This document shows positions 11,441 through 63,279 of a DNA stretch of 64,000 nt, piece after piece (positions within the stretch are counted from its first letter, which is position 1; each line of letters starts with the position of its first letter). A program made the translations under genes and the position numbers. The stretch comes from Mobula hypostoma (Eukaryota). The DNA lies in the NCBI RefSeq assembly GCF_963921235.1, contig NC_086108.1, positions 23,250,001 through 23,314,000 on the forward strand, given 5' to 3'. The notes below the pieces were generated by a model. The model did not search any database. It was not told the DNA's origin and worked only from the letters and a program-made list of their open reading frames with translations.

Positions 11441-12455
11441 AAAATGAGAAAATCTGCGGATGCTGGAAATCCAAAGCAACACACACAAAATGCTGGAGGA
11501 ACTCAGCAGTCCAGGCAGGATCTATGGAAAAGAGTAAACAGTCATTTTTTTGGGCCAAGACCCTTCATCAGGACTGGAAAGGAAGGGGGAAGGAGTCAAA
11601 CTAAAAAGGTAGAGGGTAGGGAGGAACTAGTAGAAGGTGGCAAGTGATAGGTGAAACTGGGAGAGGGAGATGGTGAAGTACCGGGAAGTTGATTGGTGAA
11701 AGAGATAAAGGGCTGGAGAAGGGGGAATTTCATAGGAATGGACAGAAGACCATGGAGAAAGGGAAGAGGGAGGTGATTGGTAGGCAAGGAGATAAGCTGA
11801 GAGAGGGAAACAGAAATGAAGAATGTTGAAGCGGTGGCGAGGGGGTGGGTGGTAGCAATTACAGAAGTTTGAAAAGTCGATTTTGGTTAGAGGCTACCCG
11901 GATGGAATATAAGGTGTTCTTCCCCCAACCTGAGTGTGGCCTCATCGTGGTAGTGGAGGAGGCTGTGAACTGACATGTCAGAATGGGAATGGGAAGTAAA
12001 ATTGAAATGAGTGGCTGCCAGGAAATCCTGCTTTTGGTGTCAGATGGAGCGAAGGTGCTTGATGAAGCAGTCTTCCGATCTATGTCGGGTCTCGTGGAAA
12101 TACATGAGGCCATACGGGGAGCATCAGATACAGTAGATGACCCTAACAGACTCACATGTGAATTTTCACTTCACCTGGAAGGACTGTTTGGGGCTCTGAA
12201 TGGTAGTGAGTGAGGAGGTGTAGGGGCAGATGTGGGCACTTGTTCTGCTTGCAGGGATAAATACCAGGAGGGAGATCAGTGGGGAGAGACAAATGGAGAA
12301 GAGAGTTGCGTAGGGAGCGAATCCTGAGCAAAGTGGAAAGGTGGGGGGGGGAGAGAAAGATGTGCTTGGTGGTGGGATTCTGTTGGAGATGGCAGAAGTT
12401 ATGGAAAATTATGCGCTAGACGCAGAGGCTAGTGTTGTAGTAAGTAAGGACAAGA
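11441..12455 (-). mobile_element. Decayed Penelope-like element (GIY-YIG region plus pseudo-LTR)
   Basis: Reverse-complement homolog of about 53570-54530. The hammerhead GAAA box is lost at 11539-11574. Confidence 0.85.
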
Positions 12456-20900: not shown

Positions 20901-21070
20901 AATCAATGCAGGAATGTGATACAAAATGATTAGAACTGGAATCTGATACATCAGCGCCAGAATATGATAGGACAGATTCCAGAGCTGAAATCTGCCCTGG
21001 GAGGCTGGGGCGGGCCAACAAAATGCTGCAAAACATATGACTGCTGCCCTTCATGAGCCAGGCAGGTATC

Positions 21071-23375
21071 ACCCCTTGGGTAAGAGTGACCATAATATGG
21101 TGGAATTCTTCATTAACATGGAGAGTGACGTAGTTAATTCAGAAACAAAGGTTCTGAACTTAAAGAGGGGTAACTTTGAAGGTATGAGACATGAATTAGC
21201 TAAGATAGACTGGCAAATGACACTTCAAGGATTGACGGTGGATATGCAATGGCAAGCATTTAAAGGTTGCATGGATGAACTACAACAATTGTTCATCCCA
21301 GTTTGGCAAAAGAATAAATCAAGGAAGGTAGTGCACCCGTGGCTGACAAGAGAAATTAGGGATAGTATCAATTCCAAAGAAGTAGCATACAAATTAGCCA
21401 GAGAAAGTGGCTCACCTGAGGACTGGGAGAAATTCAGAGTTCAGCAGAGGAGGACAAAGGGCTTAATTAGGAAGGGGAAAAAAGATTATGAGAGAAAACT
21501 GGCAGAGAACATAAAAACGGACTGTAAAAGCTTTTATAGATATGTAAAAAGGAAAAGACTGATAAAGACAAATGTAGGTCCCCTGCAAACAGAAACAGGT
21601 GAATTGATTATGGGGAGCAAGGACATGGCAGACCAATTGAATAATTACTTTGGTTCTGTCTTCACTAAGGAGGACATAAATAATCTTCCAGAAATAGTAA
21701 GGGACAGAGGGTCCAGTGAGATGGAGGAACTGAGCGAAATACATGTTAGTAGGGAAGTGGTGTTAGGTAAATTGAAGGGATTGAAGGCAGATAAATCCCC
21801 AGGGCCAGATGGTCTGCATCCCAGAGTGCTTAAGGAAGTGGCCCAAGAAATAGTGGATGCATTAGTGATAATTTTTCAAAACTCGTTAGATTCTGGACTA
21901 GTTCCTGAGGATTGGAGGGTGGCTAATGTAACCCCACTTTTTAAAAAAGGAGGGAGAGAGAAACCGGGGAATTATAGGCCGGTTAGCCTAACGTCGGTGG
22001 TGGGGAAACTGCTGGAGTCAGTTATCAAGGATGTGATAACAGCACATTTGGAAAGCGGTGAAATGATCGGACAAAGTCAGCATGGATTTGTGAAAGGAAA
22101 ATCATGTCTGACGAATCTCATAGAATTTTTTGAGGATGTAACTAGTAGAGTGGATAGGGGAGAACCAGTGGATGTGGTATATTTGGATTTTCAAAAGGCT
22201 TTTGACAAGGTCCCACATAGGAGATTAGTGTGCAAACTTAAAGCACACGGTATTGGGGGTAAGGTATTGGTGTGGGTGGAGAATTGGTTAGCAGACAGGA
22301 AGCAAAGAGTGGGAATAAACGGGACCTTTTCAGAATGGCAGGCGGTGACTAGTGGGGTACCGCAAGGCTCAGTGCTGGGACCCCAGTTGTTTACAATATA
22401 TATTAATGACTTGGATGAGGGAATTAAATGCAGCATCTCCAAGTTTGCGGATGACACGAAGCTGGGCGGCAGTGTTAGCAGTGAGGAGGATGCTAAGAGG
22501 ATGCAGGGTGACTTGGATAGGTTGGGTGAGTGGGCAAACTCATGGCAGATGCAATTTAATGTGGATAAATGTGAAGTTATCCACTTTGGTGGCAAAAATA
22601 GGAAAACAGATTATTATCTGAATGGTGGCCGATTAGGAAAAGGGGAGGTGCAACGAGACCTGGGTGTCATTATACACCAGTCATTGAAAGTGGGCATGCA
22701 GGTACAGCAGGCGGTGAAAAAGGCGAACGGTATGCTGGCATTTATAGCGAGAGGATTCGAGTACAGGAGCAGGGAGGTACTACTGCAGTTGTACAAGGCC
22801 TTGGTGAGACCACACCTGGAGTATTGTGTGCAGTTTTGGTCCCCTAATCTGAGGAGAGACATCCTTGCCATAGAGGGAGTACAAGAAGGTTCACCAGATT
22901 GATTCCTGGGATGGCAGGTCTTTCATATGAAGAAAGACTGGATGAACTGGGCTTGTACTCGTTGGAATTTAGAAGATTGAGGGGGGATCTGATTGAAACG
23001 TATAAGATCCTAAAGGGATTGGACAGGCTAGATGCGGGAAGATTGTTCCCGATGTTGGGGAGGTCTAGAACGAGGGGTCACAGTTTGAGGATAGAGGGGA
23101 AGCCTTTTAGGACCGAGATTAGGAAAAACTTCTTCACACAGAGAGTGGTGAATCTGTGGAATTCTCTGCCACAGCAAACTGTTGAGGCCAGTTCATTAGC
23201 TATGTTTAAAAGGAAGTTAGATATGGCCCTTGTGGCTACAGGGGTCACGGGGTATGGAGGGAAGGCTGGGTTCTGAGTTGGATGATCAGCCATGATCATA
23301 ATAAATGGCGGTGCAGGCTCGAAGGGCCGAATGGCCTACTCCTGCACCTATTTTCTATGTTTCTATGTTTCTATT
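21071..23375 (+). mobile_element. Young 5'-truncated CR1 LINE with near-intact ORF2 RT
   Basis: 621-aa ORF with KSPGPDG, NYRPVSLT, LDFQKAFD, GVPQGSVLGP and FADD. One frameshift near 22885. (TTTCTATG)n tail. Confidence 0.96.
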
Positions 23376-31722: not shown

Positions 31723-33875
31723 TAGAACATAGAACATAGAATAGTACAGCACAGTACAGGCCCTTCGGCCCACAATGTTGTGCCGACCCTCAAACCCTGC
31801 CTCCCATATAAGCCCCCACCTTAAATTCCTCCATATACCTGTCTAGTAGTCTCTTAAACTTCACTAGTGTATCTGCCTCCACCACTGACTCAGGCAGTGC
31901 ATTCCATGCACCAACCACTCTCTGAGTGAAAAACCTTCCTCTAATATCCCCCTTGAACTTCCCACCCCTTACCTTAAAGCTATGTCCTCTTGTATTGAGC
32001 AGTGGTGCCCCAGGGAAGAGGCGCTGGCTATCCACTCTATCTATTCCTCTTATTATCTTGTACACCTCTATCATGTCTCCTTTCATCTTCCTTCTCTCCA
32101 AAGAGTAAAGCACTAGTTCTCTTAATCTCTGATCATAATGCATACTCTCTAAACCAGGCAGCATCCTGGTAAATCTCCTCTGTACCCTTTCCAATGCTTC
32201 CACATCCTTCCTATAGTGAGGCGACCAGAACTGGACACAGTACTCCAAGTGTGGTCTAACCAAAGTTTTATAGAGCTTCATCATTACATTGCGACTCTTA
32301 AACTCTATCCCTCGACTTATGAAAGCTAACACCCCATAAGCTTTCTTAACTACCCTATCAACCTGTGAGGCAGCTTTCAGGGATGTGTGGACATGTACTC
32401 CCAGATCCCTCTGCTCCTCCACACTACCAAGTATCCTGCCATTTACTTTGTACTCTGCCTTGGAGTTTGTCCTTCCAAAGTGTACCACCTCACACTTCTC
32501 CGGGTTGAACTCCACCTGCCACTTCTCAGCCCACTTCTGCATCCTATCAATGTCTCTCTGCAATCTTTGACAATCCTCTACACTATCTACAACACCACCA
32601 ACCTTTGTGTCGTCTGCAAACTTGCCAACCCACCCTTCTACCTCCACATCCAGGTCGTTAATAAAAATCATGAAAAGTAGAGGTCCCAGAACAGATCCTT
32701 GTGGGACACCACTAGTTACAATCCTCCAATCTGAATGTACTCCCTCCACCACCACCCTCTGCCTTCTGCAGGCAAGCCAATTCTGAATCCACCTGGCCAA
32801 ACTTCCCTGGATCCCATGCCTTGTAACTTTCTGAATAAGCCTACTGTGTGGAACCTTGTCAAATGCCTTACTAAAATCCATATAGATCACATCCACTGCA
32901 CTACCCTCATCTATATGCCTGGTCACCTCCTCGAAGAACTCTGTCAGGCTTGTTAGAACGATCTGCCCTTCACAAAGCCATGCTGACTGTCCCTGATCAG
33001 ACCATGATTCTCTAAATGCCCAGAGATCCTATCTCTAAGAATCTTTTCCAACAGCTTTCCCACCACAGATGTAAGGCTCACTGGTTTATAATTATCCGGA
33101 CTATCCCTACTACCTTTTATGAACAAGGGGACAACATTCGCCTCCCTCCAATCCTCCGATACCATTCCCGTGGACAACGAGGACATAAAGATCCTAGCCA
33201 GAGGCTCAGCAATCTCTTCCCTCGCCTTGTGGAGCAGCCTGGGGAATATTCTGTCAGGCCCCAGGGACTTATCCATCCTAATGTATTTTAACAACTCCAA
33301 CACCTCCTCTCTCTTAATATCAACATGCTGCAGAACATCAACCTCACTCATATTGTCCTCACCATCATCAAGTTCCCTCTCATTGGTGAATACTGAAGAG
33401 AAGTATTCATTGAGGACCTCGCTCACTTCCATAGCCTCCAGGCACATCTTTCCACCTTTATCTCTAATCGGTCCTACCTTCACTCCTGTCATCCTTTTGT
33501 TCTTCACATAATTGAAGAATGCCTTGGGGTTTTCCTTTACCCTACTCGCCAAGGCCTTGTCATGCCCCCTTCTTGCTCTTCTCAGCCCCTCTTAAGCTCC
33601 TTTCTTGCTTCCCTATATTCCTCAATAGACCCATCTGATCCTTGCTTCCTAAACCTCATGTATGCTGCCTTCTTCCACCTGACTAGATCTTCCACCTCAC
33701 TTGTCTCCCATGGTTCCTTCACCCTACCATTCTTTATCTTCCTCACCGGGACAAATTTATCCCTAACATCCTGCAAGAGATCTCTGAACATCGACCACAC
33801 GTCCATAGTACTTTTCCCTGCAAAAACATCATCCCAATTCACACCCGCAAGTTCTAGCCTTATAGCCTCATAATT
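31723..33875 (-). mobile_element. Young 5'-truncated CR1 LINE
   Basis: ORFs 33582-33911, 32953-33552 and 31790-32926 reconstruct ORF2 RT (MDFSKAFD, FADD). (AGAACAT)n tail. Confidence 0.96.
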
Positions 33876-34611: not shown

Positions 34612-37352
34612 AGAGAAACCATAGAAACTACAGCACAGAAACAGACCTTTTGGCCCTTCTTGGCTGTGCTGAACCATTTTCTGCCTAGTCCCACTGACCT
34701 GCACACGGACCATATCCCTCCCTACACCTCCCATCCATGTATCTGTCCAATTTATTCTTAAATGTTAAAAAAGAACCCACATTTACCACCTCGTCTGGCA
34801 GCTCATTCCATACTCCCACCACTCTCTGTGTGAAGAAGCCCCCCCCTAATGTTCCCTTTAAACTTTTCCCCCCTCACCCTTAACCTATGTCCTCTGTTTT
34901 TTTTCTCCCCTTGCCTCAGTGGAAAAAGCCTGCTTGCATTCACTCTATCAATACCCATCATAATTTTATATACCTTTGTCAAATCTCCCCTCATTCTTCT
35001 ACGCTCCAGGGAATAAAGTCCTAACCTATTCAATCTTTCTCTGTAACTGAGTTTCTCAAGTCCTGGCAACATCCTTGTAAACCTTCTCTGCACTCTTTCA
35101 ACCTTATTTATATCCTTCCTGTAATTTGGTGACCAAAACTGAACACAATACTCCAGATTCAGCCTCACCAATGCCTTATACAACCTCACCATAACATTCC
35201 AGCTCCTATACTCAATACTTTAATTAATAAAGGCCAATGTACCAAAAGCTCTCTTTACCACCCTATCTACCTGGACGCCACTTTTAGGGAATTTTGTATC
35301 TGTATTCCCAGATCCCTCTGTTCCACTGCACTCCTCAGTGCCTTACCGTTAACCGTGTATGTTCTACCTTGGTTTGTCCTTCCAATGTGCAATACCTCAC
35401 ACTTGTCTGTATTAAACTCCATCTGCCATTTTTCAGCCCATTTTTCCAGCTGGTCCAAGTCCCTCTGCAGGCTCTGAAAACCTTCCTCACTGTCTACTAC
35501 ACCTCCAATCTTTGTATCATCAGTAAATTTGCTGATCCAATTTACCACATTATCATCCAGATCATTGATATAGATGACAAATAACAATGGACCCAGCACT
35601 GATCCCTGTGGCACACCACTAGTCACAGGCCTCCACTCAGAGAAGCAATTCTCTACTACCACTCTTTGGCTTCTTCCATTGAGCCAATGTCTAATCCAAT
35701 TTACCACCTCTCCATGTATACCTAGCGACTGAATTTTCCAAACTAACCTCCCATGTGGGACCTTGTCAAAGGCCTTACTGAAGTCCATGTAGACAATATC
35801 CACTGCCTTCCCTTCATCCACTTTCCTGGTAACCTCCTCGAAAAACTTCAATAGATTGGTCAAACATGACCTACCACGCACAAAGCCATGTTGACTCTCC
35901 CTAATAAGTCCCTGTCTATCCAAATGCTTGTAGATTCTGTCTCTTAGTACTCCCTCCAATAACTTACCCACGACCGACGATGAACTCACTGGCCTATAAT
36001 TTCCCGGATTACTTTTCGATCCTTTTTTAAACAACGGAACAACATCAGCCACTCTCCAATCCTCCGGCACCTCACCTGTAGACAGCGACATTATAAATAT
36101 TTCTGCCAGGGCCCCTGCAATTTCAACACTTGTCTCCTTCAAGGTCCGAGGGAACACTCTGTCAGGTCCCGGGGATTTATCCACTTTAATTTTCCTCAAG
36201 ACAGCAAGGACCTCCTCCTTTTCGATCTGTACAGTTTCCATGATCTCACTACTTGTTTCCCTTAATTCCATAGACTTCATGCCAGTTTCCTGAGTAAATA
36301 CAGACGCAAAAAACCTATTTAAGATCTCCCCCATTTCCTTTGGTTCTGCACATAGCCGACCACTCTGATCATCAAGAGGACCAATTTTATCCCTTACAAT
36401 CCTTTTGCTCTTAATATACCTGTAAAAGCTCTTTGGATTATCCTTCACTTTGACTGCCAAGGCAACCTCATGTCTTCTTTTAGCCCTCCTGATTTCTTTC
36501 TTAAGTATTTTCTTGCACTTCTTATACTCCTCTAGCACCTTATTTACTCCCTGCTTCTTATACATATCATACAACTCCCTCTTCTTCTTTATCAGAGTTG
36601 CAATATCCCTTGAGAACCAAGGTTCCTTATTCCTATTCACTTTGCCTTTAATCCTGACAGGAACATACAAATTCTGCACTCTCAAAATTTCTCCTTTGAA
36701 GGCTTCCCACCTACCGATCACATCTTTGCCAGAGAACAGCCTGTCCCAATCCATGCTTTTTAGATCCTTTCTCATTTCTTCAAATTTGTCCTTCTTCCCA
36801 TTAAGAACCTCAACCCTAGGACCAGATCTACCCTTGTCCATGATCAAGTTGAAACTAATGGTGTTATGATCACTGGAACCAAAGTGCTCCCCTACACAGA
36901 CTTCTGTCACTTGTCCTAACTCGCTTCCTAACAGGAGATCCAATATTGCATCCCCTCTGGTTGGTCCCTCTATATATTGATTTAGAAAACTTTCCTGAAC
37001 ACATTTTACAAACTCTAAACCATCTAGACCCCTAACAGTAGGGAGTCCCAATCAATATATGGAAGATTAAAATCCCCTAGCACCACAATTTTATGTTTCC
37101 TGCAGTTGCCTGCTATCTCTCTGCAGATTTGCTCTTCCAAGTCTCGTTGACTATTGGGTGGTCTGTAATACAATCCCACTAATGTGGCCATACCTTTCCT
37201 ATTTCTCAGCTCCACCCATAAGGACTCAGTAGACAAGCCCTCTAATCTGTCCTGCCTGAGCACTGCTGTAATATTTTCCCTAACAAGCAATGCTATTCCC
37301 CCACCTTTCATTCTCCTGCCTCGATCACATCTGAAACATCGGAACCCTGGAA
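34612..37352 (-). mobile_element. CR1 LINE ORF2 (partial endonuclease plus RT), few disruptions
   Basis: ORFs 37024-37311 (GGGIALLV, YRPP, GDFN), 35267-37051 (594 aa; SDH and RT) and 34803-35192. (agaaaccat) tail. Confidence 0.96.
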
Positions 37353-39435: not shown

Positions 39436-41005
39436 CAACATCAACATCATGCAGACCAGCTAGCTAAGATTCTCACTGACATCTTCAACATCTCCCTGAG
39501 CAGCACCGTCATTCCTACGTGTTTCAAGGCTGCCACCATTGTCCCCATGCCGAAGAAGTCTTCAGTGTCCTGCCTCAGCAACTACTGTCCTGTCGCACTC
39601 ACATCCATCATCATGAAGTGTTTTGAGAGGCTCGTCATGAGGCACATTGAGACCCTGCTGCCCCTCACTGGACCCCCTGCATTTCGTGTACCGTCCCAAC
39701 CGTTCAACAGACGATGCCATTGCCATCACCCTCCAGCTGGCCCTAACCCACCTGGACAAAAAAGACACATACGTTCGAATGCTGTTCATAGGCTTCAGTT
39801 TAGCATTCAACACAATCATTCCTCAGAAACTGATTGGAAAGCTGAGCCAAATGGGTCTGAACACCTCCCTTTGCAACTGGATCCTAGACTTCCTGAGTGG
39901 GAGACCTCAGTCAGTCTGGATTGGAAACAGCGTCTCCAACACCATCATACTGAGCGCAGGGGCCCCCCAGGGCTGTGTGCTTAGTCCACTGCTGTTCACT
40001 CTGCTGACCCACGACTGTGCTGCAACACACAGCTCGAACCACATCATCAAGTTCACCGATGACACGACCGTGGTGGGTCTCATAAGTAAGAACGATGAGT
40101 CAGCATACAGAGAGGAGGTGCAGCGGCTAATGGACTGGTGCAGAGCCAACAACCTGTCTCTGAATGTGAACAAAACAAAAGAGATGGTTGTTGACTTCAG
40201 GAGGACACGGAACGGCCACTCTCTGCTGAACATTAACGACTCCTCTGTAGAGATCGTTAAGAGCACCAAATTTCTTAGTGTTCACCTGGCGGAGAATCTC
40301 ACCTGGTCCCTCAACACCAGCTCCATAGCAAAGAAAGCCCAGCAGCGTCTCTACTTTCTGCGAAGGCTGAGAAAAGTCCATCTCCCACCCCCCATCCTCA
40401 CCACATTCTACAGAGGTTGTATTGAGACCATCCTGAGCAGCTGCATCACTGCCTGGTTCGGAAATTTCACCATCTCGGATCGCAAGACCCTGCAGCGGAT
40501 AGTGAAGTCAACTGAGAAGATCATTGGGGTCTCTCTTCCTGCCATTACAGACATTTACACCACACGTTGCATCCGTAAAGCAAACAGCATTATGAAGGAC
40601 CCCATGCACCCCTCATACAAACTCTTCTCCCTCCTGCTATCTGGCAAAAGGCACCGAAGTATTCGGGCTCTCACGACCAGACTATGTAACAGTTTCTTCC
40701 CCCAAGCCATCAGACTCACCAATACCCAGAGCCTGGACTGACACCAACCTACTACCCTCTACTGTGCCTATTGTCTTGTTTATTATTTATTGTAATGCCT
40801 GCACTATTTTGTGCACTTTATGCAGTCCTGGGTAGGTCTGTAGTCTAGTGTAGTTTTGTGTTTTTTTTTTACGTAATTCAGTGTAGTTTTTGTATTGTTC
40901 ATTTAGCGCCATGGTCCTGAAAAATGTCTCGTTTTTATTGTGTACTGTACCAGCAGTTATGGTTGAAATGACAATAAAAAGTGACTTGACTTGACTTGAC
41001 TTGAC
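39436..41005 (+). mobile_element. Young 5'-truncated Rex1/Babar LINE
   Basis: ORFs 39394-39984 and 39647-40741 (one frameshift) give [26 protein letters not shown] and SFFPQAIR. (GACTT)n tail; TGAC on both flanks. Confidence 0.93.
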
Positions 41006-47057: not shown

Positions 47058-47308
47058 TATATGTTACCCCTCAACGTTCCTAGTAAATCTCTCCCTTCTC
47101 ACCTTAAAGCTATGACCTCTAGTTCTTGATTTTCCAACCCCGAGGAAAACAGACTGCATTCACTCTATCGATGTCACTCATGATTTTCCACACCTCTCAA
47201 TCTCCTGCACTCAAGGGAACAAAGCCCTAGTCTGTCCAACCTTTCCTTATAACTCAAGTCATCATCATTGTAAATGTTTTCTGCACTATTTCCAGTTTAA
47301 TAATCCAA

Positions 47309-48495
47309 TCACAAACAAGAGAAAATCTGCAGTTGCTGGAAAGCAAATCAACACACACAAGATGCTGGAGGAACTCGGCAGGCCAGGCAGCATCTATGGA
47401 AAAAGTACAGTTGACATTTTGGGCTGAAACCCTTTGAGAAGACTGGAGAAAGAAAGCTGAGTAGTAGAATCAAAAGGTGGGGGAGGGGAGAGGGAAACAC
47501 CAGGTGACAGGTGAAACCTGGAAGGGGAAGGATAAAGTAAAGAGCTGGGAAGTTGATTGGTGAAAGAGACAGAAGGCCATGGAAGAAAGTGGGGAGGGGC
47601 ACCAGAGGGAGGTGATAGGTGGGCAAGGAGATAAGGTGAGAGAGAAAAAAGGGGAACAGTGAAGGGGGGGAGTCATTACTGGAAGTTCGAGAAATCAATG
47701 TTCATGCCATCAGGCTGGAGGCTACGTAGATAGAATATAAGGTGTTGTTCCTCCAACCTACATGTGGCCTCATTATGATTGTGGAGGAGGCCATGGATAG
47801 ACATATCAGAATGGGAATGAGAAGTGGAATTAAAATGGGTGGCCACTGGGAGATCCCGCTTTTTCTGGCGGTTGGTGCTCAGGTGCTCGGTGAAATGGCC
47901 TCCCAATCTACCTCAGGTCACACTGATATACAAGAAGCCACACCGGGAGCACCGGACACAGTAACTGACCCCAACAGACTCATGGGTAAAGTGTCACCAG
48001 AATCTCCCAGTGGCCATCCATTTTAATTGCACTTCCCATTCCCATTCTGATATGTCTATCCATGGCCTTCTCCACTGTCGTGATGAAGTCACGCTCAGGT
48101 TCAAGGAAGAAGAAGAAGAAAAGCCCTTAACTCGGCAGACGAGTTATTGGGGCACCGTCATGACAGTGTTTCCGTAGCAAGCTATTCTTGTTTTTATGAG
48201 GCCGAGTTGCTAGCTCCACGCTCAACCCGACTTGGATTCAAACTCGGGAATCTTCGCTCCGGAGTCCGGCACCGATATTATTGCGCCACCAAGCGGGAGG
48301 TTGAAGGAACAACACCTTATATTCCACCTGGGTAGCCTTTAACCTAGACTTCAGGTAATGCCCCCCCCCTTCCCCATTTTCCATCCCCTTTCCCTCTCTC
48401 ACCTTATGTCCTTGCCCACCCATTGCCTCCCTCTGGTGCTCCTTCCCCCTTTTCTTTCTTCTATGGCCTTCTGTTTCCTTCACCAATCAGCAGTT
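47309..48495. mobile_element. Decayed PLE with inverted structure (minus 47309-47998, plus 48000-48495)
   Basis: ORF 47676-47906 (DLPVATHFNSTSHSHSDMSIHGL...LQPDGMNIDFSNF) matches the C-terminus of the 52155 ORF, and the same segment recurs on the + strand. Confidence 0.88.
48109..48297 (-). mobile_element. Short tRNA-derived SINE with (TTC)n tail
   Basis: Minus strand has A box GGTGGCGCAAT and B box GAGTTTGAATCC. 12-bp TSD AGGTT(C/G)AAGGAA (48097-48108 and 48298-48309). Confidence 0.85.
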
Positions 48496-50942: not shown

Positions 50943-52219
50943 AAAGACCAATTCCATCACTGGGGTTAAGAGCAGAGTGTATAAACTACCTCCTCCATTT
51001 TCAGGTGGCATGAGAGCCTTTTCAGGAGAAGAGGAACAGAAATCAGATGATGTTACAATTAAAAGTAAAACTACAGCTACAGGAAATCTGAAATAAATGC
51101 AGAATACACTGGAAACGCTTAGCAGGTCAGGCAGCTTCTAAAGGAGTTATATCACACAAGAGTAGGCTACTAGATCCATTGTTCTTTATGGAGCTGTTCA
51201 GTTGATCCTATTAATCTTTCCTTGTGCTTTTACTTCAGTAATTATCCATTTTGCTTTTGAATGTTACCATTGAAATTGCTTCTAGCATTCTTTCTGGCAG
51301 TGTAATGCAGGTCACAACTTGCTATGTAAAGACAAGATAATACTTGTTTGGTTCCTGGCTCTTCTTCCATTCACCTTACACTTATACGATCTACTCTACC
51401 AAAACCAACCACAACTTCCTCCAAATCTCCACTAAACCTAAAATCAAAGAATAGATTTTTAGATAATAAGAGAATCAAGTGACCTGGGGTTAGCATAGGA
51501 ATGTGTCACTCAAGTGGCAGAGCATTGAGGGGGTGCTGAATGGTCTAATTGCTTTTATTTCTGGTGTATCTTGCAACTATACCAATATTATACAACCACT
51601 TATGTTATATTAATGCTATATTTTCCCATGTTTTGTGAGCTTAGGCAAGTTGATATCCCTGCTACCGTTGTTCCTGTCACTTTGCCAACAAGGCTGCGTT
51701 AAGATAATTGATTAAATGCCCTTGGAAAGTTTATAGAAACAAAATACAGTACGGTAAATTGGGTTAAGACAGTAGGTTTTGTGGGAGAGAACGAGATTTC
51801 TGGATGCCATGTTGCTTCCTGGAGGCCAGGGTCTAGGATATCTGGGATCAAGTCCTCAGCATTCTTAAGTGGGAAGGTGAACAGCCAGAAGTCGTGGTCG
51901 ATGTAGGTACCAATGACATGAGTGATGAGGTTCTGCATAGGGAGTTTAGGGAGTTAGGTGCTAAGTTAAAGGGCAGGACCTCCAGGGTTGTAATCTCAGG
52001 ATTGCTACCCATACCACAAGCTAGTGAGGCTGGACCTAGGAAGATTACACAGTTTAATATGTGGCTAAGGAGTTGGTGTAGGAGGGAGGGCATTATATTT
52101 TTGGATCATTAGCCTCTCTTCCAGGGAATTTGGGACCTATACAGACAGGATGATTTGCATCTGAACTGGAGGGGGATTAATATCCTAGTGGGGAGGTTTG
52201 TTAAAGCTGTATGGTGGGG

Positions 52220-54107
52220 CTTCACCGCACCTTGTCCCCATTCCAACCTCACTCCTTCGGAACGCTCTGCTCTCCACTCCCTCCGCACTAATCCTAACAT
52301 TATTATTAAACCCGTTGATAAGGGGGGTGCTGTTGTAGTCTGGCGTACTGACCTCTACCTTGCCGAGGCACAGCGACAACTCGCGGATACCTCCTCTTAT
52401 TTATCCCTCGATCGTGACCCCACTAAGGAGCACCAGGCCATTGTCTCCCACACTATCAACGACTTTATCCGCTCAGGGGATCTCCCATCCACTGCTACCA
52501 ACCTTATAGTTCCCACACCCCGCACTTCCCGTTTCTACCTCCTACCCAAGATCCACAAACCTGCCTGTCCTGGCCGACCTATTGTCTCAGCTTGCTCCTG
52601 CCCCACCGAACTCGTTTCTGCATACCTCGACACTGTTTTATCACCCCTTGTTCAATCCCTTCCGACCTATGTTCGTGACACTTCTCACGCTCTTAAACTT
52701 TTCGATGATTTTAAGTTCCCTGGCCCCCACCGCTTTATTTTCACCTTGGATGTCCAGTCCCTATATACTTCCATCCCCCATCAGGAAGGTCTCAAAGCTC
52801 TACGCTTCTTTTTGGATTCCAGACCTAATCAGTTCCCCTCTACCACCACTCTGCTCCGTCTAGCAGAATTAGTCCTTACTCTTAATAATTTCTCCTTTTG
52901 CTCCTCCCATTTCCTCCAAACTAAAGGTGTAGCTATGGGCACCCGTATGGGTCCTAGCTATGCCTGCCTTTTTGTTGGGTTTGTGGAACAATCTATGTTC
53001 CGTGCCTATTCTGGTATCTGTCCCCCACTTTTCCTTCGCTACATCGACGACTGCATTGGCGCTGCTTCCTGCACGCATGCAGAACTCGTTGACTTTATTA
53101 ACTTTGCCTCCAACTTTCACCCTGCCCTCAAGTTTACCTGGTCCATTTCTGACACCTCCCTCCCCTTTCTAGATCTTTCTGTCTCTGTCTCTGGAGACAG
53201 CTTATCCACTGATGTCTACTATAAGCCTACTGACTCTCACAACTATCTGGACTATTCCTCTTCTCACCCTGTCTCTTGCAAAAACGCCATCCCCTTCTCG
53301 CAATTCCTCCGTCTCCGCCACATCTGCTCTCAGGATGAGGCTTTTCATTCTAGGACGAGGGAAATGTCTTCATTTTTTAAAGAAAGGGGCTTCCCTTCCT
53401 CCACTATCAACTCTGCTCTTAAACGCATCTCCCCCATTTCACGTACATCTGCTCTCACTCCATCCTCCCACCACCCCACTAGGAATAGGGTTCCCCTGGT
53501 CCTCACCTACCACCCCACCAGCCTCCGGGTCCAACATATTATTCTCCGTAACTTCCACCACCTCCAACGGGATCCCACCACTAAGCATATCTTTCCCTCC
53601 CCGCCTCTCTCTGCATTCCGCAGGGATCGCTCCCTACACAACTCCCTTGTCCATTCGTCCCCCCCATCCCTCCCCACTGATGTCCCTGCTGGCACTTATC
53701 CGTGTAAGCGGAACAAGTGCTACACATGCCCTTACACTTCCTCCCTTACCACCATTCAGGGCCCCAAACAGTCCTTCCAGGTGAGGCATCACTTCACCTG
53801 TGAGTCGACTGGGGTGATATACTGCGTCCGGTGCTCCCGATGTGGCCTTTTATATATTGGTGAGACCCGACGCAGACTGGGAGACCGCTTTGCTGAACAT
53901 CTACGCTCTGTCCGCCAGAGAAAGCAGGATCTCCCAGTGGCCACACATTTTAATTCCACATCCCATTCCCATTCTGACATGTCTATCCACGGCCTCCTCT
54001 ACTGTAAAGATGAAGCCACACTCAGGTTGGAGGAACAACACCTTATATTCCGTCTGGGTAGCCTCCAACCTGATGGCATGAACATTGACTTCTCTAACTT
54101 CCGCTAG
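52220..54107 (+). CDS. PLE reverse transcriptase plus GIY-YIG endonuclease (N-terminally truncated)
   Basis: Motifs IKPVDKG, LPKIHK, PGRPIVS, DVQSLY, GVAMG, LRYIDD, the Cys cluster CKRNKCYTC, and GVIYCVRCSRCGLLYIGET...RFAEH. Confidence 0.9.
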
Positions 54108-54400
54108 GCCCCACCTCCCCCTCGTACCCCATCTGTTACTCTTTTTAATGCACACATTCTTTCTCTCACTCTCCTTTTTCTCCCTCTGTCCCTCTGAATA
54201 TACCTCTTGCCCATCCTCTGGGTCACCCCCCCCCCCGTCTTTCTTCCCGGACCTCCTGTCCTATGATCCTCTCGTATCCCCTTTTGCCTATCACCTGTCC
54301 AGCTCTCGGCTCCATCCCTCCCCCTCCTGTCTTCTCCTATCATTTTGCATCTCCCCCTCCCCCTCCAGCTTTCAAATCCCTTACTCACTCTTCCTTCAGT

Positions 54401-54438
54401 TAGTCCTGACGAAGGGTCTCGGCCTGAAACGTCGACTG
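54401..54438 (+). ncRNA. Minimal type I hammerhead ribozyme, copy 1
   Basis: agtc-CTGACGA-agg(gtctcgg)cct-GAAA-c-GTC-gact. Stem I is agtc/gact, and a palindromic ACGT replaces stem III. Predicted cut after 54433. Confidence 0.8.
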
Positions 54439-54887
54439 CGCCTCTTCCTATAGATGCTGCCTGGCCTGCTGCGTTCACCAGCAACTTTGATGTATGTTGC
54501 TTGAATTTCCAGCATCTGCAGAATTCCTGTTGTTTATATTCCGTCTTGATAGCCTAAACCTGATGGCATGAACATTGACTTCTCTAACTTCTGCTAATGC
54601 CCCACCTCCCCCTCGTACCCCATCCGTTATTTATTTATATACACACATTCTTTCTCTCTCTCTCTCCTTTTTCTCCCTCTGTCCCTCTGACTATACCCCT
54701 TGCCCATCCTCTGGGTTTTTTTCCCCCTCCCCCTTTTCCTTCTCCCTGGGCCTCCTGTCCCATGATCCTCTCATATCCCTTTTGCCAATCATCTATCCAG
54801 CTCTTGGCTCCATCCTGTCTTATCCTATCATTTTGGATCCCCCCTCCCCCTCCCACTTTCAAATCTCTTACTAGCTCTTCCTTCAGT

Positions 54888-54925
54888 TAGTCCTGATGAA
54901 GGGTCTCGGCCTGAAACGTCGACTG
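54888..54925 (+). ncRNA. Minimal type I hammerhead ribozyme, copy 2
   Basis: agtc-CTGATGA-agggtctcggcct-GAAA-c-GTC-gact. Differs from copy 1 only at the variable N7 position. Predicted cut after 54920. Confidence 0.8.
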
Positions 54926-54999
54926 CGCCTCTTCCTATAGATGCTGCCTGGCCTGCTGCGTTCACCAGCAACTTTGATGGATGGTGGGGTTTAAACTAA

Positions 55000-55311
55000 T
55001 CATAGTCATAGTCATAGTCATAGTCATACTTTATTGATCCTGGGGGAAATTGGTTTTCGTTACAGTTGCACCATAAATAATACATAGTAATAGAACTATA
55101 AATAGTTAAATAGTGATATGTAAATTATGCCAGAAAATTATGAAATAAGTCCAGGACCAGCCTATTGGCTCAGAGTGTCTGACCCTCCAAGGGAGCAGTT
55201 GTAAAGTTTGATGGCCACAGGCAGAAACTTTACAACTCCTCCCTTGGAAGGTCAGACACCCTGAGCCAACAGGCTGGTCCTGGACTTATTTCATAATTTA
55301 CTGGCATAATT
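55000..55311 (-). mobile_element. LINE (Rex1-type) 3' tip with (CATAGT)n tail and fold-back duplication
   Basis: Tail at 55000-55028, inverted arms 55123-55209 and 55225-55311, AACTA on both flanks. Confidence 0.7.
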
Positions 55312-61300: not shown

Positions 61301-62013
61301 AGAATTTGCAAAACTTTGATATTCCTTTAAAACAGCATCTGCAAATCATTGTAGTTGTCATTTCATTTTTACGTGCCTTTTTTCTTTTTTTTTTGAAATC
61401 CAGTGAAAACTGATTTAACTTTAAAGGATTTAACTTTTCCTGTTTCATTCTAATTTCTTAAGAGCAGAAAACTTTGTAAAAATTATTCTTTGAATCATTT
61501 TTTTAAACACACCGGTCACTCTCAATGCTCATCTAAACAAATACGAAAATTTAGGCATTTAGAAGTTAGGTCATAGATAAAGTCAAGATTCCTGTAGGAA
61601 TTGGCTGAGCCAAGTGAGATGAAAGGCTTATCCAATTGATGTAATTCACTGGAGTTTTCAGGGAGAAATAGATGAAAGTCCATTTCAATGAAAATTATTA
61701 AGATTTATAGAACCTTAATTTTATGGATTGAAAGCCATATTGGCAGTATTTAACAAAAGGTGATATTTCAAGGATAATGTGGAGATATTCACTTATGAGG
61801 TTTTGCCCTGTTTGTTTTGCGACATCACTCTGTTCTTTTTTTTACTGGTCACGGAGAGTATTTCTTGAAGTGTTTGTCGCTAATATTTTTGAATATGGAG
61901 TGGGAAAGAGTTATTCATTTATATCTTTATCTGCAGGGCTATTTATCCAAAATGTTATTATTTTTCAGTCTTGCCTGGCAAAGTTAGACAATGAGAATAT
62001 CAGCTTTGCACTA

Positions 62014-63279
62014 TCGTTAAATATGAGAGATTCTGCAGATGCTGGAAATCCAAAGCAACACACACAAAATGCTGGAGGAACTCGGCAGGTCAGGCAGTAT
62101 CTATGTAAACAAATAAGCAGTCGATGTTTAGGGCTGAGACCCTTCTTCAGGACCAAAAAGGAAGTGGGAATATGCTAGAATAAAAAGGCGGTGGGGGGGG
62201 GGGGGAAGGAGGATAGCTGGAATCAGATGAGTTCGAAAGCTAAAAGGCTGGAGAAGAAGGAACCTGATAGGAGAGGAGAGTGGACAATAGCCTCTGCTTC
62301 CAACACAGCATCGTCCGCAATTTCTGTCATCTCCAAAAGCACTTTAGTCTTACCACAAAACATAACTTTACCTCCCCCTTCACTCTTCTTTCTGCAGGGA
62401 TCACTCCCTCCATGATTCCCATGTCCATTCATCCCTCCGCACTAATCTCCCTCCGAACACATATCCCTGCAAGTGGCCAAAGTGCTACATCTGCCTATTC
62501 CTCTCTCACCTCCGTTCTGGGCCCCAAACAGTCCTTCAAGGTGAGGCGACACTTCACCTGTGAATCTGCTGGAGCCATCTGGTGTCTGTTGCTTTCAATG
62601 TGGCATTCTCTATATTGGTGAGATCTGTCATAAGTTGGGAGACTGCTTCATTGAGCACCTCCACTCCATCTGCCAAAAGCAGAACTTCCCAGTGCCAAAT
62701 GTTTTAATTCCAATTCCCCTTCCCACATGCCAGTCTATGGCCTCGTCTTGTGCCAAGATGAGTCCACCCTTAGGGTGAAGGAGCAATACCTTGTATTCCA
62801 ACTGGGTAGCTTCCACCCAATTTATCCTTCCATTAAAAAAATTCCCTCCCCCTCCCATCTTCCTCTATTCCCCACTCTTGCCTCTTACCTTTTCTCACCT
62901 GCCTATTACTAACCACCCCCCCCCCCCGGCCCCCGTATGCCATCACCCTTCCCTATCTCCTATGGTCCACTCTCCTCTTCTATTAGATTCCTTCTTCTCT
63001 GGCCCTTTATTTTCCAATCCACCTGGCTTCACCAATCACCTTTTAGCTAGTCTCCTTCCACTTCCCCCACCTTTTTATTCTGGCATCTTCCCCTTTCCTT
63101 TCGAATTGAATTGAATTGGATTGGCTTTATATCTTACATCCTTCACATATATGAGGAGTAAAAATCTTTATGTCATCTCCATCCTGAAGAAGGTTCTCAG
63201 CCTGAAACGTTGACTGTTTATTCATTTCCATCGGTGTTGCCTGACCTGCTGAGTTCCTCCAACAGTTTGTCTGTGTTGC
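62014..63279. mobile_element. Decayed PLE with inverted pseudo-LTRs at both ends
   Basis: Minus pseudo-LTR at 62021-62290, then plus GIY-YIG remnant and pseudo-LTR at 62290-63279. 15-bp TSD ATCAGCT(T/C)TGCA(C/T)TA (61999-62013 and 63280-63294). Confidence 0.85.

Follow-up and report, generated by a model that had tools for sequence, protein, structure and literature searches.

A composite Penelope-like insertion in a LINE remnant

Positions 52220-54979 of the window, by which we mean the whole 64,000-nucleotide stretch of Mobula hypostoma DNA analysed here, are a single insertion, a 2.76-kb composite of Penelope-like element (PLE) sequence inside a LINE-like remnant with a GDSL-type frame. 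The insertion is flanked on the forward strand by the target-site duplication ATGGTGGGG, with its left copy at 52211-52219 and its right copy at 54981-54989; the duplication reaches 10 bp with one mismatch when positions 52210 and 54980 are counted. The interrupted host retains a GDSL/SGNH-like frame at 51837-52109, also on the forward strand (Lipase_GDSL_2, E 4.5e-6, below the cut-off), which may be ORF1 of a CR1-type LINE. At 55123-55311, a 15-nt spacer separates two inverted arms of 87 nt that are 94% complementary; this element is adjoined by a (TCATAG)4.8 run at 55000-55028 and looks like a small non-autonomous DNA transposon inserted in the same host LINE. Other decayed PLE pieces are found in the window near 2000-2500, 11450-12450, 47300-48350 and 62000-62800, as are four further LINE-type RT frames (20989-22902, 31790-33028, 35267-37051 and 39641-40741) that match Pfam RVT_1 above the cut-off.

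The 5′ part of the insertion (52220-54107, forward strand) is a 5′-truncated, uninterrupted Penelope-like ORF containing RT, linker and GIY-YIG regions, with YIDD near 53040, the CX4CxxC linker CKRNKCYTC and a GIY-YIG motif with CxxC from 53811. Pfam matches RVT_1 (E 1.8e-5) and GIY-YIG (E 5.5e-4) were both below the curated cut-offs. The locus has the features of EN+ PLEs: one ORF with RT and, at the C terminus, GIY-YIG, two cysteines between GIY and YIG (motif GVIYCVRCSRCGLLYIG), a pseudo-LTR arising from a partial tandem, a tail, 5′ truncation and a target-site duplication. The linker CKRNKCYTC conforms to the CX2-5CxxC pattern upstream of GIY-YIG and, as read from the translated frame, points to the Neptune/Nematis type.

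A sequence-only reading of this DNA had described the ORF as intact. The frame is indeed free of stops, but it starts at 52220, behind the target-site duplication, and corresponds to residues 415-1042 of the 1042-aa ORF at another locus, L105, to which it is 98.7% identical; the 36 codons extending the open frame back to 52113 are host LINE sequence. In the window copy the first 414 of the 1042 codons are missing, as are the start codon and the 5′ pseudo-LTR; it is not an autonomous copy. Twenty-nine other loci are near-identical to the first 482 bases of the ORF, and eight of these carry a hammerhead 1350 nt upstream of this anchor. The full unit measures 3514 nt from hammerhead to hammerhead, and two of the eight full-length loci fetched (L104 and L105) combine a 5′ pseudo-LTR with an open frame of 1043 codons. 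The tail that lies 3′ of the hammerhead is, in full-length copies, the start of the ORF.

Two hammerhead motifs at a doubled 3′ end

The 3′ end of the element occurs twice, and TRF reports a single array at 54043-54983 (period 487, 1.9 copies, 87% matches). All segments lie on the forward strand. The unit 1 body (54043-54401) consists of the ORF end and a pyrimidine-rich 3′ UTR of a young subfamily, and is followed, beyond hammerhead motif 1, by a young-subfamily tail (tail 1, 54434-54535) ending at the common RT start CTGTTGTTT. The junction TTATATTCCGTCT (54534-54546) is the right copy of a duplicated target whose left copy is found at the locus L031. It leads into the unit 2 body (54536-54897), the rest of an older-subfamily copy with private changes common to exactly seven loci, and then, past motif 2, into tail 2 (54921-54979), which is young-type, identical to tail 1 and ends at the short RT start region. 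Two such start regions are evident from the ends of 30 sampled copies, 14 of which fall at 54498-54508 and 16 at 54534-54535.

The two complete minimal hammerheads 487 nt apart that the sequence-only reading had reported were confirmed at 54402-54437 and 54889-54924. Both are minimal type I motifs on the forward strand, with predicted cleavage after 54433 and 54920, respectively, giving the spacing of 487 nt. Each consists of stem I AGTC/GACT, the core CTGA(C/T)GA, stem II GGGT/GCCT with a CTCG loop, a GAAA box, the palindrome ACGT in the place of stem III, and the cleavage triplet GTC^. As had also been noted, the cores differ only at N7, and we find this to be the sole difference from core through tail (54410 C, 54897 T). 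With a CUGANGA/GAAA/NUH core, helices I and II and a palindrome replacing helix III, the motifs are minimal PLE hammerheads, and their description as dimer-type holds; a dimer can be drawn with standard pairs throughout (20/20). The conserved G10.1-C11.1 pair is absent, U at 11.1 making it a G-U wobble in both motifs. Among 153 sites counted, some of them duplicated between overlapping loci, 111 have GGGT-CTCG-GCCT and 12 have GGGT-CTCG-GCCC. U at 11.1 is the state of the currently dominant subfamily, so the G-C pair closing stem II is now G-U in thousands of recent copies.

A search of the 3.48 Gb genome with 36 nt of the young hammerhead and tail gave 16,442 exact matches, against none with the reversed control; the motifs are therefore not chance occurrences but the 3′ motif of an abundant family. 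The covariance-model search by which they were to be checked gave no hammerhead hit: with Rfam, the whole window at E≤1 yielded five weak miRNA-family hits, attributable to the inverted-arm element at 55123-55311, and 54350-54990 at E≤10 yielded four hits far below threshold. This null result does not refute the motifs, since they lack helix III. A third, decayed hammerhead motif at 63184-63211, with the cleavage triplet GTT, belongs to an older relative of the family. One regex match, in L111, was discarded as it is not a family motif.

A seven-copy lineage built from two subfamilies

Median identity to 36 young copies is 98.4% for unit 1 and 83.2% for the unit 2 body. Against 23 older loci the unit 2 body reaches a median of 92.2%, a figure that is partly circular because the older loci were picked by their similarity to unit 2. 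On these identities the two units belong to different subfamilies. That the cores nevertheless differ only at N7 could be read as implying selection on them. In its 3′ part, however, unit 2 consists of young sequence that likely replaced an older tail, and we rejected the proposal that selection keeps the cores identical as unshown.

The private sequence of unit 2 occurs at exactly seven loci genome-wide. Marks of unit 2 include T at 54897 and a 10-nt deletion near 54810. The exact junction from tail to unit 2 is present at six of these, the seventh copy starting inside the search pattern, and unit 2 is joined to a young tail at six loci. The seven copies are ~99% identical to one another, and start at window-equivalent positions 52220, 52395, 53437, 54156, 54325, 54513 and 54524. 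They carry a lineage haplotype (A53363, G53603, G53688, C54054, T54284) that is found in none of 37 other long young copies. The window copy was considered as the master of the lineage and rejected, as it has six private substitutions and a short tail 2.

We consider it very improbable that the seven copies arose by DNA duplication, gene conversion or assembly artefact, with no two-hammerhead RNA ever having been copied. Two of the six daughters (L032 and L036) have no target-site duplication of at least 7 bp, as this explanation would allow, and conversion could have homogenised tail 2. The copies are, however, located on six contigs with unrelated flanks and differing 5′ truncations, and end at the family's two RT start regions, while the other four daughters (the window copy, L033, L034 and L035) each have their own 9-15 bp target-site duplication, so that duplication at the DNA level is largely refuted.

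A putative founder and a recurrent self-insertion site

The remaining member, L031, reads in order older copy, young insert, TTATATTCCGTCT, and unit 2 with an old-type tail. Its left part is an older copy (94% identical) ending CACCTTATATTCCGTCT, the target being TTATATTCCGTCT, and the whole is a nested insertion whose target duplication measures 8-13 bp. L031 is likely the founder of the seven-copy lineage, judging from this arrangement. Its old tail is followed by GTCTGGGTAG, which continues the sequence of the target site; there may have been two successive insertions at one site, or L031 is perhaps a daughter as well. Its young insert starts at 52395, while the window copy extends 175 nt further 5′, to 52220. 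L031 was therefore not the only template of the window copy, and another switch or a missing master is needed to supply the extra 175 nt.

The self-insertion site, named ACCTTATATTCCG, lies ~60-70 nt before the stop codon and has been used repeatedly. The tail-to-site junction occurs at 18 loci, four of this lineage and 14 others, compared with one and five matches for control 12-mers taken ~35 nt to either side of the hotspot, a comparison with two controls only. Ten of the 14 unrelated junctions (L156, L157, L158, L159, L161, L163, L166, L170, L171 and L172) retain the left half of the older copy with a 10-15 bp duplication, and in L156 and L161 the cut is at the same nucleotide as in L031; by their junction sequences, all ten are nested in this way, with the target duplicated. 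L165 has the left half but no duplication, one junction (L162/L173) belongs to a two-hammerhead unit with its own outer duplication, and two (L167 and L169) fall outside these classes. Two detectable hammerheads, 438-506 nt apart, are present at eight of the 14, and two of the 37 long young copies, fetched for another reason, have a second motif at 499 and 549 nt. As the 14 other junctions share the insertion site, a spacing of ~490 nt follows from geometry: 487 nt is simply the distance from site to hammerhead plus the length of the tail.

The outer duplication just mentioned is the 10-bp CCTGTACTCA, and the unrelated unit that it flanks (L173:4143-6480, minus strand of the fetched stretch) has its hammerheads 494 nt apart. 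Since this unit has an outer duplication of its own, it is likely a second composite that was copied whole.

A tandem could also be formed in one insertion by template jumping, with a short cDNA of the older type extended on young RNA and L031 being a daughter whose target was an older copy. The GTCTGGGTAG that follows the tail in L031 may then be the target's right half, with 3-4 bp duplicated. At L173 and L167 the junction has no left half, and part of the sequence required for the window copy is absent from L031. Against this, the duplications of the family are 9-15 bp here, not 3-4, and the ten unrelated junctions of ordinary nesting, two of them at the nucleotide used in L031, have duplications of 10-15 bp. 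Unit 2 is also aged, at ~92% identity to its nearest siblings, which fits genomic DNA better than an RNA that is currently copied. We therefore regard template jumping as unlikely.

Probable re-copying of an uncut two-hammerhead RNA

The reading we favour, with a probability of about 0.72, is that a young PLE copy inserted into an older one near the end of its ORF, and that the resulting two-hammerhead composite was then reverse-transcribed uncut into six sites. As read from the assembly, seven loci share the composite, and L031 holds both the older left half and the duplicated target. Entry of the young copy at TTATATTCCGTCT would have duplicated the target and doubled the 3′ end, and RNA of this composite, with both hammerheads uncut, would have been reverse-transcribed into the six new sites. 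Reverse transcription would have begun in a tail of the young type and changed over to the composite RNA at a point inside hammerhead 2, whether a single time, in a master absent from the assembly, or anew in trans at each event, so replacing the old tail. In the RNA that serves as template, the hammerheads would be passive or slow.

Both motifs, with ORF-side unit 1 upstream, are kept in all five copies extending beyond hammerhead 1. No copy of the seven has its start at 54434 or its end at 54920, a second unit 2 is found upstream in none of the six junction copies, and there are no head-to-tail arrays. The template was therefore likely an uncleaved linear RNA, although copies surviving in DNA cannot show the fate of RNA that was cut and never copied. 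Tail 2 is young-type in the six daughters and old-type in L031 which, together with the 175 extra nt, calls for template switching or an unfound master. Position 54912 is T in the daughters and C in L031, and provided L031 keeps the ancestral state a switch between 54897 and 54912 may be inferred. The crossover interval 54898-54911 rests on this one position, a CpG site and hence a weak marker; if 54912 decayed in the source allele, the interval would include the scissile bond. Two of the daughters, L035 and L036, begin inside tail 1, by 22 and 12 nt, respectively; a circular template would suit them equally well. Hits starting at 54425-54441 number none of 148 distinct ones, a count that carries no weight as the loci were picked by patterns spanning the site.

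In 19 of 30 sampled young copies (L043-L072, a sample that could not include starts at the cut site) the 5′ end falls at 54381-54412, just before or inside the 5′ half of the hammerhead and often with an inversion, and the clustering of these ends points to a transcript start or to stalling of the RT at the ribozyme. In L136, a long young copy, the sequence passes directly from the ORF (window-equivalent 53765) into the hammerhead core, the two sides sharing a short stretch where they meet, possibly a template switch at the ribozyme.

The sequence-only reading had instead proposed a candidate retrozyme-like or circular-RNA unit, in which the two hammerheads could pair as a dimer and excise a 487-nt RNA. 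In its fuller form, this RNA would be joined into a circle and now and then copied by reverse transcription in trans, making the locus a retrozyme at birth. We give this little credence. Equally doubtful is its extension, in which a self-targeting endonuclease keeps building ~490-nt dimers, the lineage is mobile via the circularised 487-nt interval, and L035 and L036 are single-turn copies, the founder locus of this retrozyme being still present in the genome. A circle from L031-type RNA would join young tail 1 to the unit 2 body, as is seen in all six daughters, and L035 and L036 exceed a single 487-nt turn by 22 and 12 nt, respectively. No daughter of six stops inside the unit 2 body, against two of 11 comparable young copies, a difference that is not significant. 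The dimer pairing can be drawn, as described above, and in its tandem repeat the locus agrees with the published screening rule for ‘active retrozymes’ (bioRxiv 10.64898/2026.07.22.740005). That rule of Li et al., at least two tandem units each with a complete hammerhead, was judged here from the TRF array and our motif reading.

Against excision, unit 1 lies upstream in four of the six daughters and in L031, whereas a circle would lack it, and none of the six junction copies contains a second turn. The T at 54912 in the daughters, as opposed to C in L031, places the switch 5′ of the scissile bond unless the CpG decayed. Two members of the seven are single units, ambiguous between a linear and a circular template; with unit 1 upstream in the other five and no arrays, the lineage does not spread as monomer tandems independent of the PLE ORF. 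Nor is the motif a canonical type I hammerhead with loop 1-loop 2 contacts; it is minimal. In folding predictions, which ignore proteins, the active dimer lies 31.8 kcal/mol above the MFE of the two-copy transcript with a helix probability of 0.000, so the active hammerhead form is predicted to be disfavoured in naked RNA. Cleavage of the Anolis carolinensis Poseidon element PAc is reported to be protein-assisted (PMC11167929). The predicted circle is 13% G and 37% paired (z -1.8 vs 40 shuffles), whereas the retrozyme circles described in PMC7229834 are highly self-paired.

The wobble at 11.1 in both motifs also weighs against cleavage, and published minimal PLE hammerheads cleave poorly: cleavage was weak even as dimers (PMC4209133), and eight of nine Xenopus dimer elements gave no cleavage and one was active (bioRxiv 10.64898/2026.07.22.740005). 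Four assembled-contig sets over 52000-55300, from runs not recorded as RNA, have no pile-up of ends, though contigs cannot show ends, and a circle junction would be identical in sequence to the genomic junction. The 487-nt spacing is likely the product of nesting at the recurrent site, as at the 14 other junctions, and with all five informative copies uncut, no end at a cut among seven copies and no second unit 2 among six, the doubled hammerheads are probably the ordinary tail motifs of two PLE copies, not a circular-RNA unit.

Implications and comparison with known systems

The occurrence of minimal hammerheads in PLE repeats, the partial tandems and the connection with retrozymes have all been published before. 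Searches of openly accessible literature gave no report of this hotspot, this family, or a founder with six daughters. The additions here are the self-insertion hotspot, the re-copied two-hammerhead unit and a traceable putative founder with six daughters, which add detail to a known system. Under the favoured reading the lineage is a natural experiment, in which a pair of hammerheads capable of forming a dimer was retrotransposed uncut at least four times, and it would support in a genome the in vitro result for the anole element PAc. Recurrent self-insertion offers a concrete route to two-hammerhead tandems at Penelope ends; such tandems would be counted as ‘active retrozymes’ by pipelines though possibly never making circles. 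Were the circle reading true, the lineage would allow the proposed origin of animal retrozymes from Penelope elements to be tested on a founder and its daughters.

The window motifs resemble the hammerheads of metazoan PLE pseudo-LTRs, as described in PMC4209133, in their short helix I, the unpaired base between A9 and 10.1, the absence of loop 3, the palindromic 15.2-16.2, their location in terminal repeats and their occurrence mostly in solo truncated copies. They differ in having U at 11.1 rather than the conserved C, and in that the second copy here lies downstream, is of an older subfamily and follows at a distance of 487 nt instead of the length of a whole element (here 3514 nt).

With Neptune/Nematis-type EN+ PLEs the window element shares RT plus GIY-YIG at the C terminus, the CxxC inside that motif, the upstream CX4CxxC, 5′ truncation, partial tandems and an optional tail (PMC8557442, where partial tandem and inverted insertions are described for this type). 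The partial tandem of that source places a truncated copy before a full one, as at eight of the 29 loci here, whereas in the window an older truncated unit follows the element.

Metazoan non-LTR retrozymes, as described in PMC7229834 and bioRxiv 10.64898/2026.07.22.740005, likewise have two tandem type I hammerheads a few hundred bases apart, a GC content under 50% and sequence derived from PLE terminal repeats; Li et al. list a cartilaginous fish in the latter. Compared with these retrozymes, the window ribozyme is minimal, its units are only 87% alike and of different origins, and it is attached to a PLE ORF, without multimers and known here from DNA alone.

A further parallel is PAc (PMC11167929). 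The tail that is the ORF start, two RT start regions, AT-rich nicking, an uncleaved RNA template (here the probable one) and the lack of ends at the hammerhead cut are common to both. The window element differs in its CX2-5CxxC linker, which PMC8557442 gives as absent in Penelope/Poseidon, in targeting itself ~60-70 nt before the stop codon, and in that the evidence is genomic rather than biochemical. In the in vitro work on PAc, mutations of the hammerhead left insertion unaffected and none of the reads had its end at the cut, and our reading of an uncut template agrees with these results (PMC11167929).
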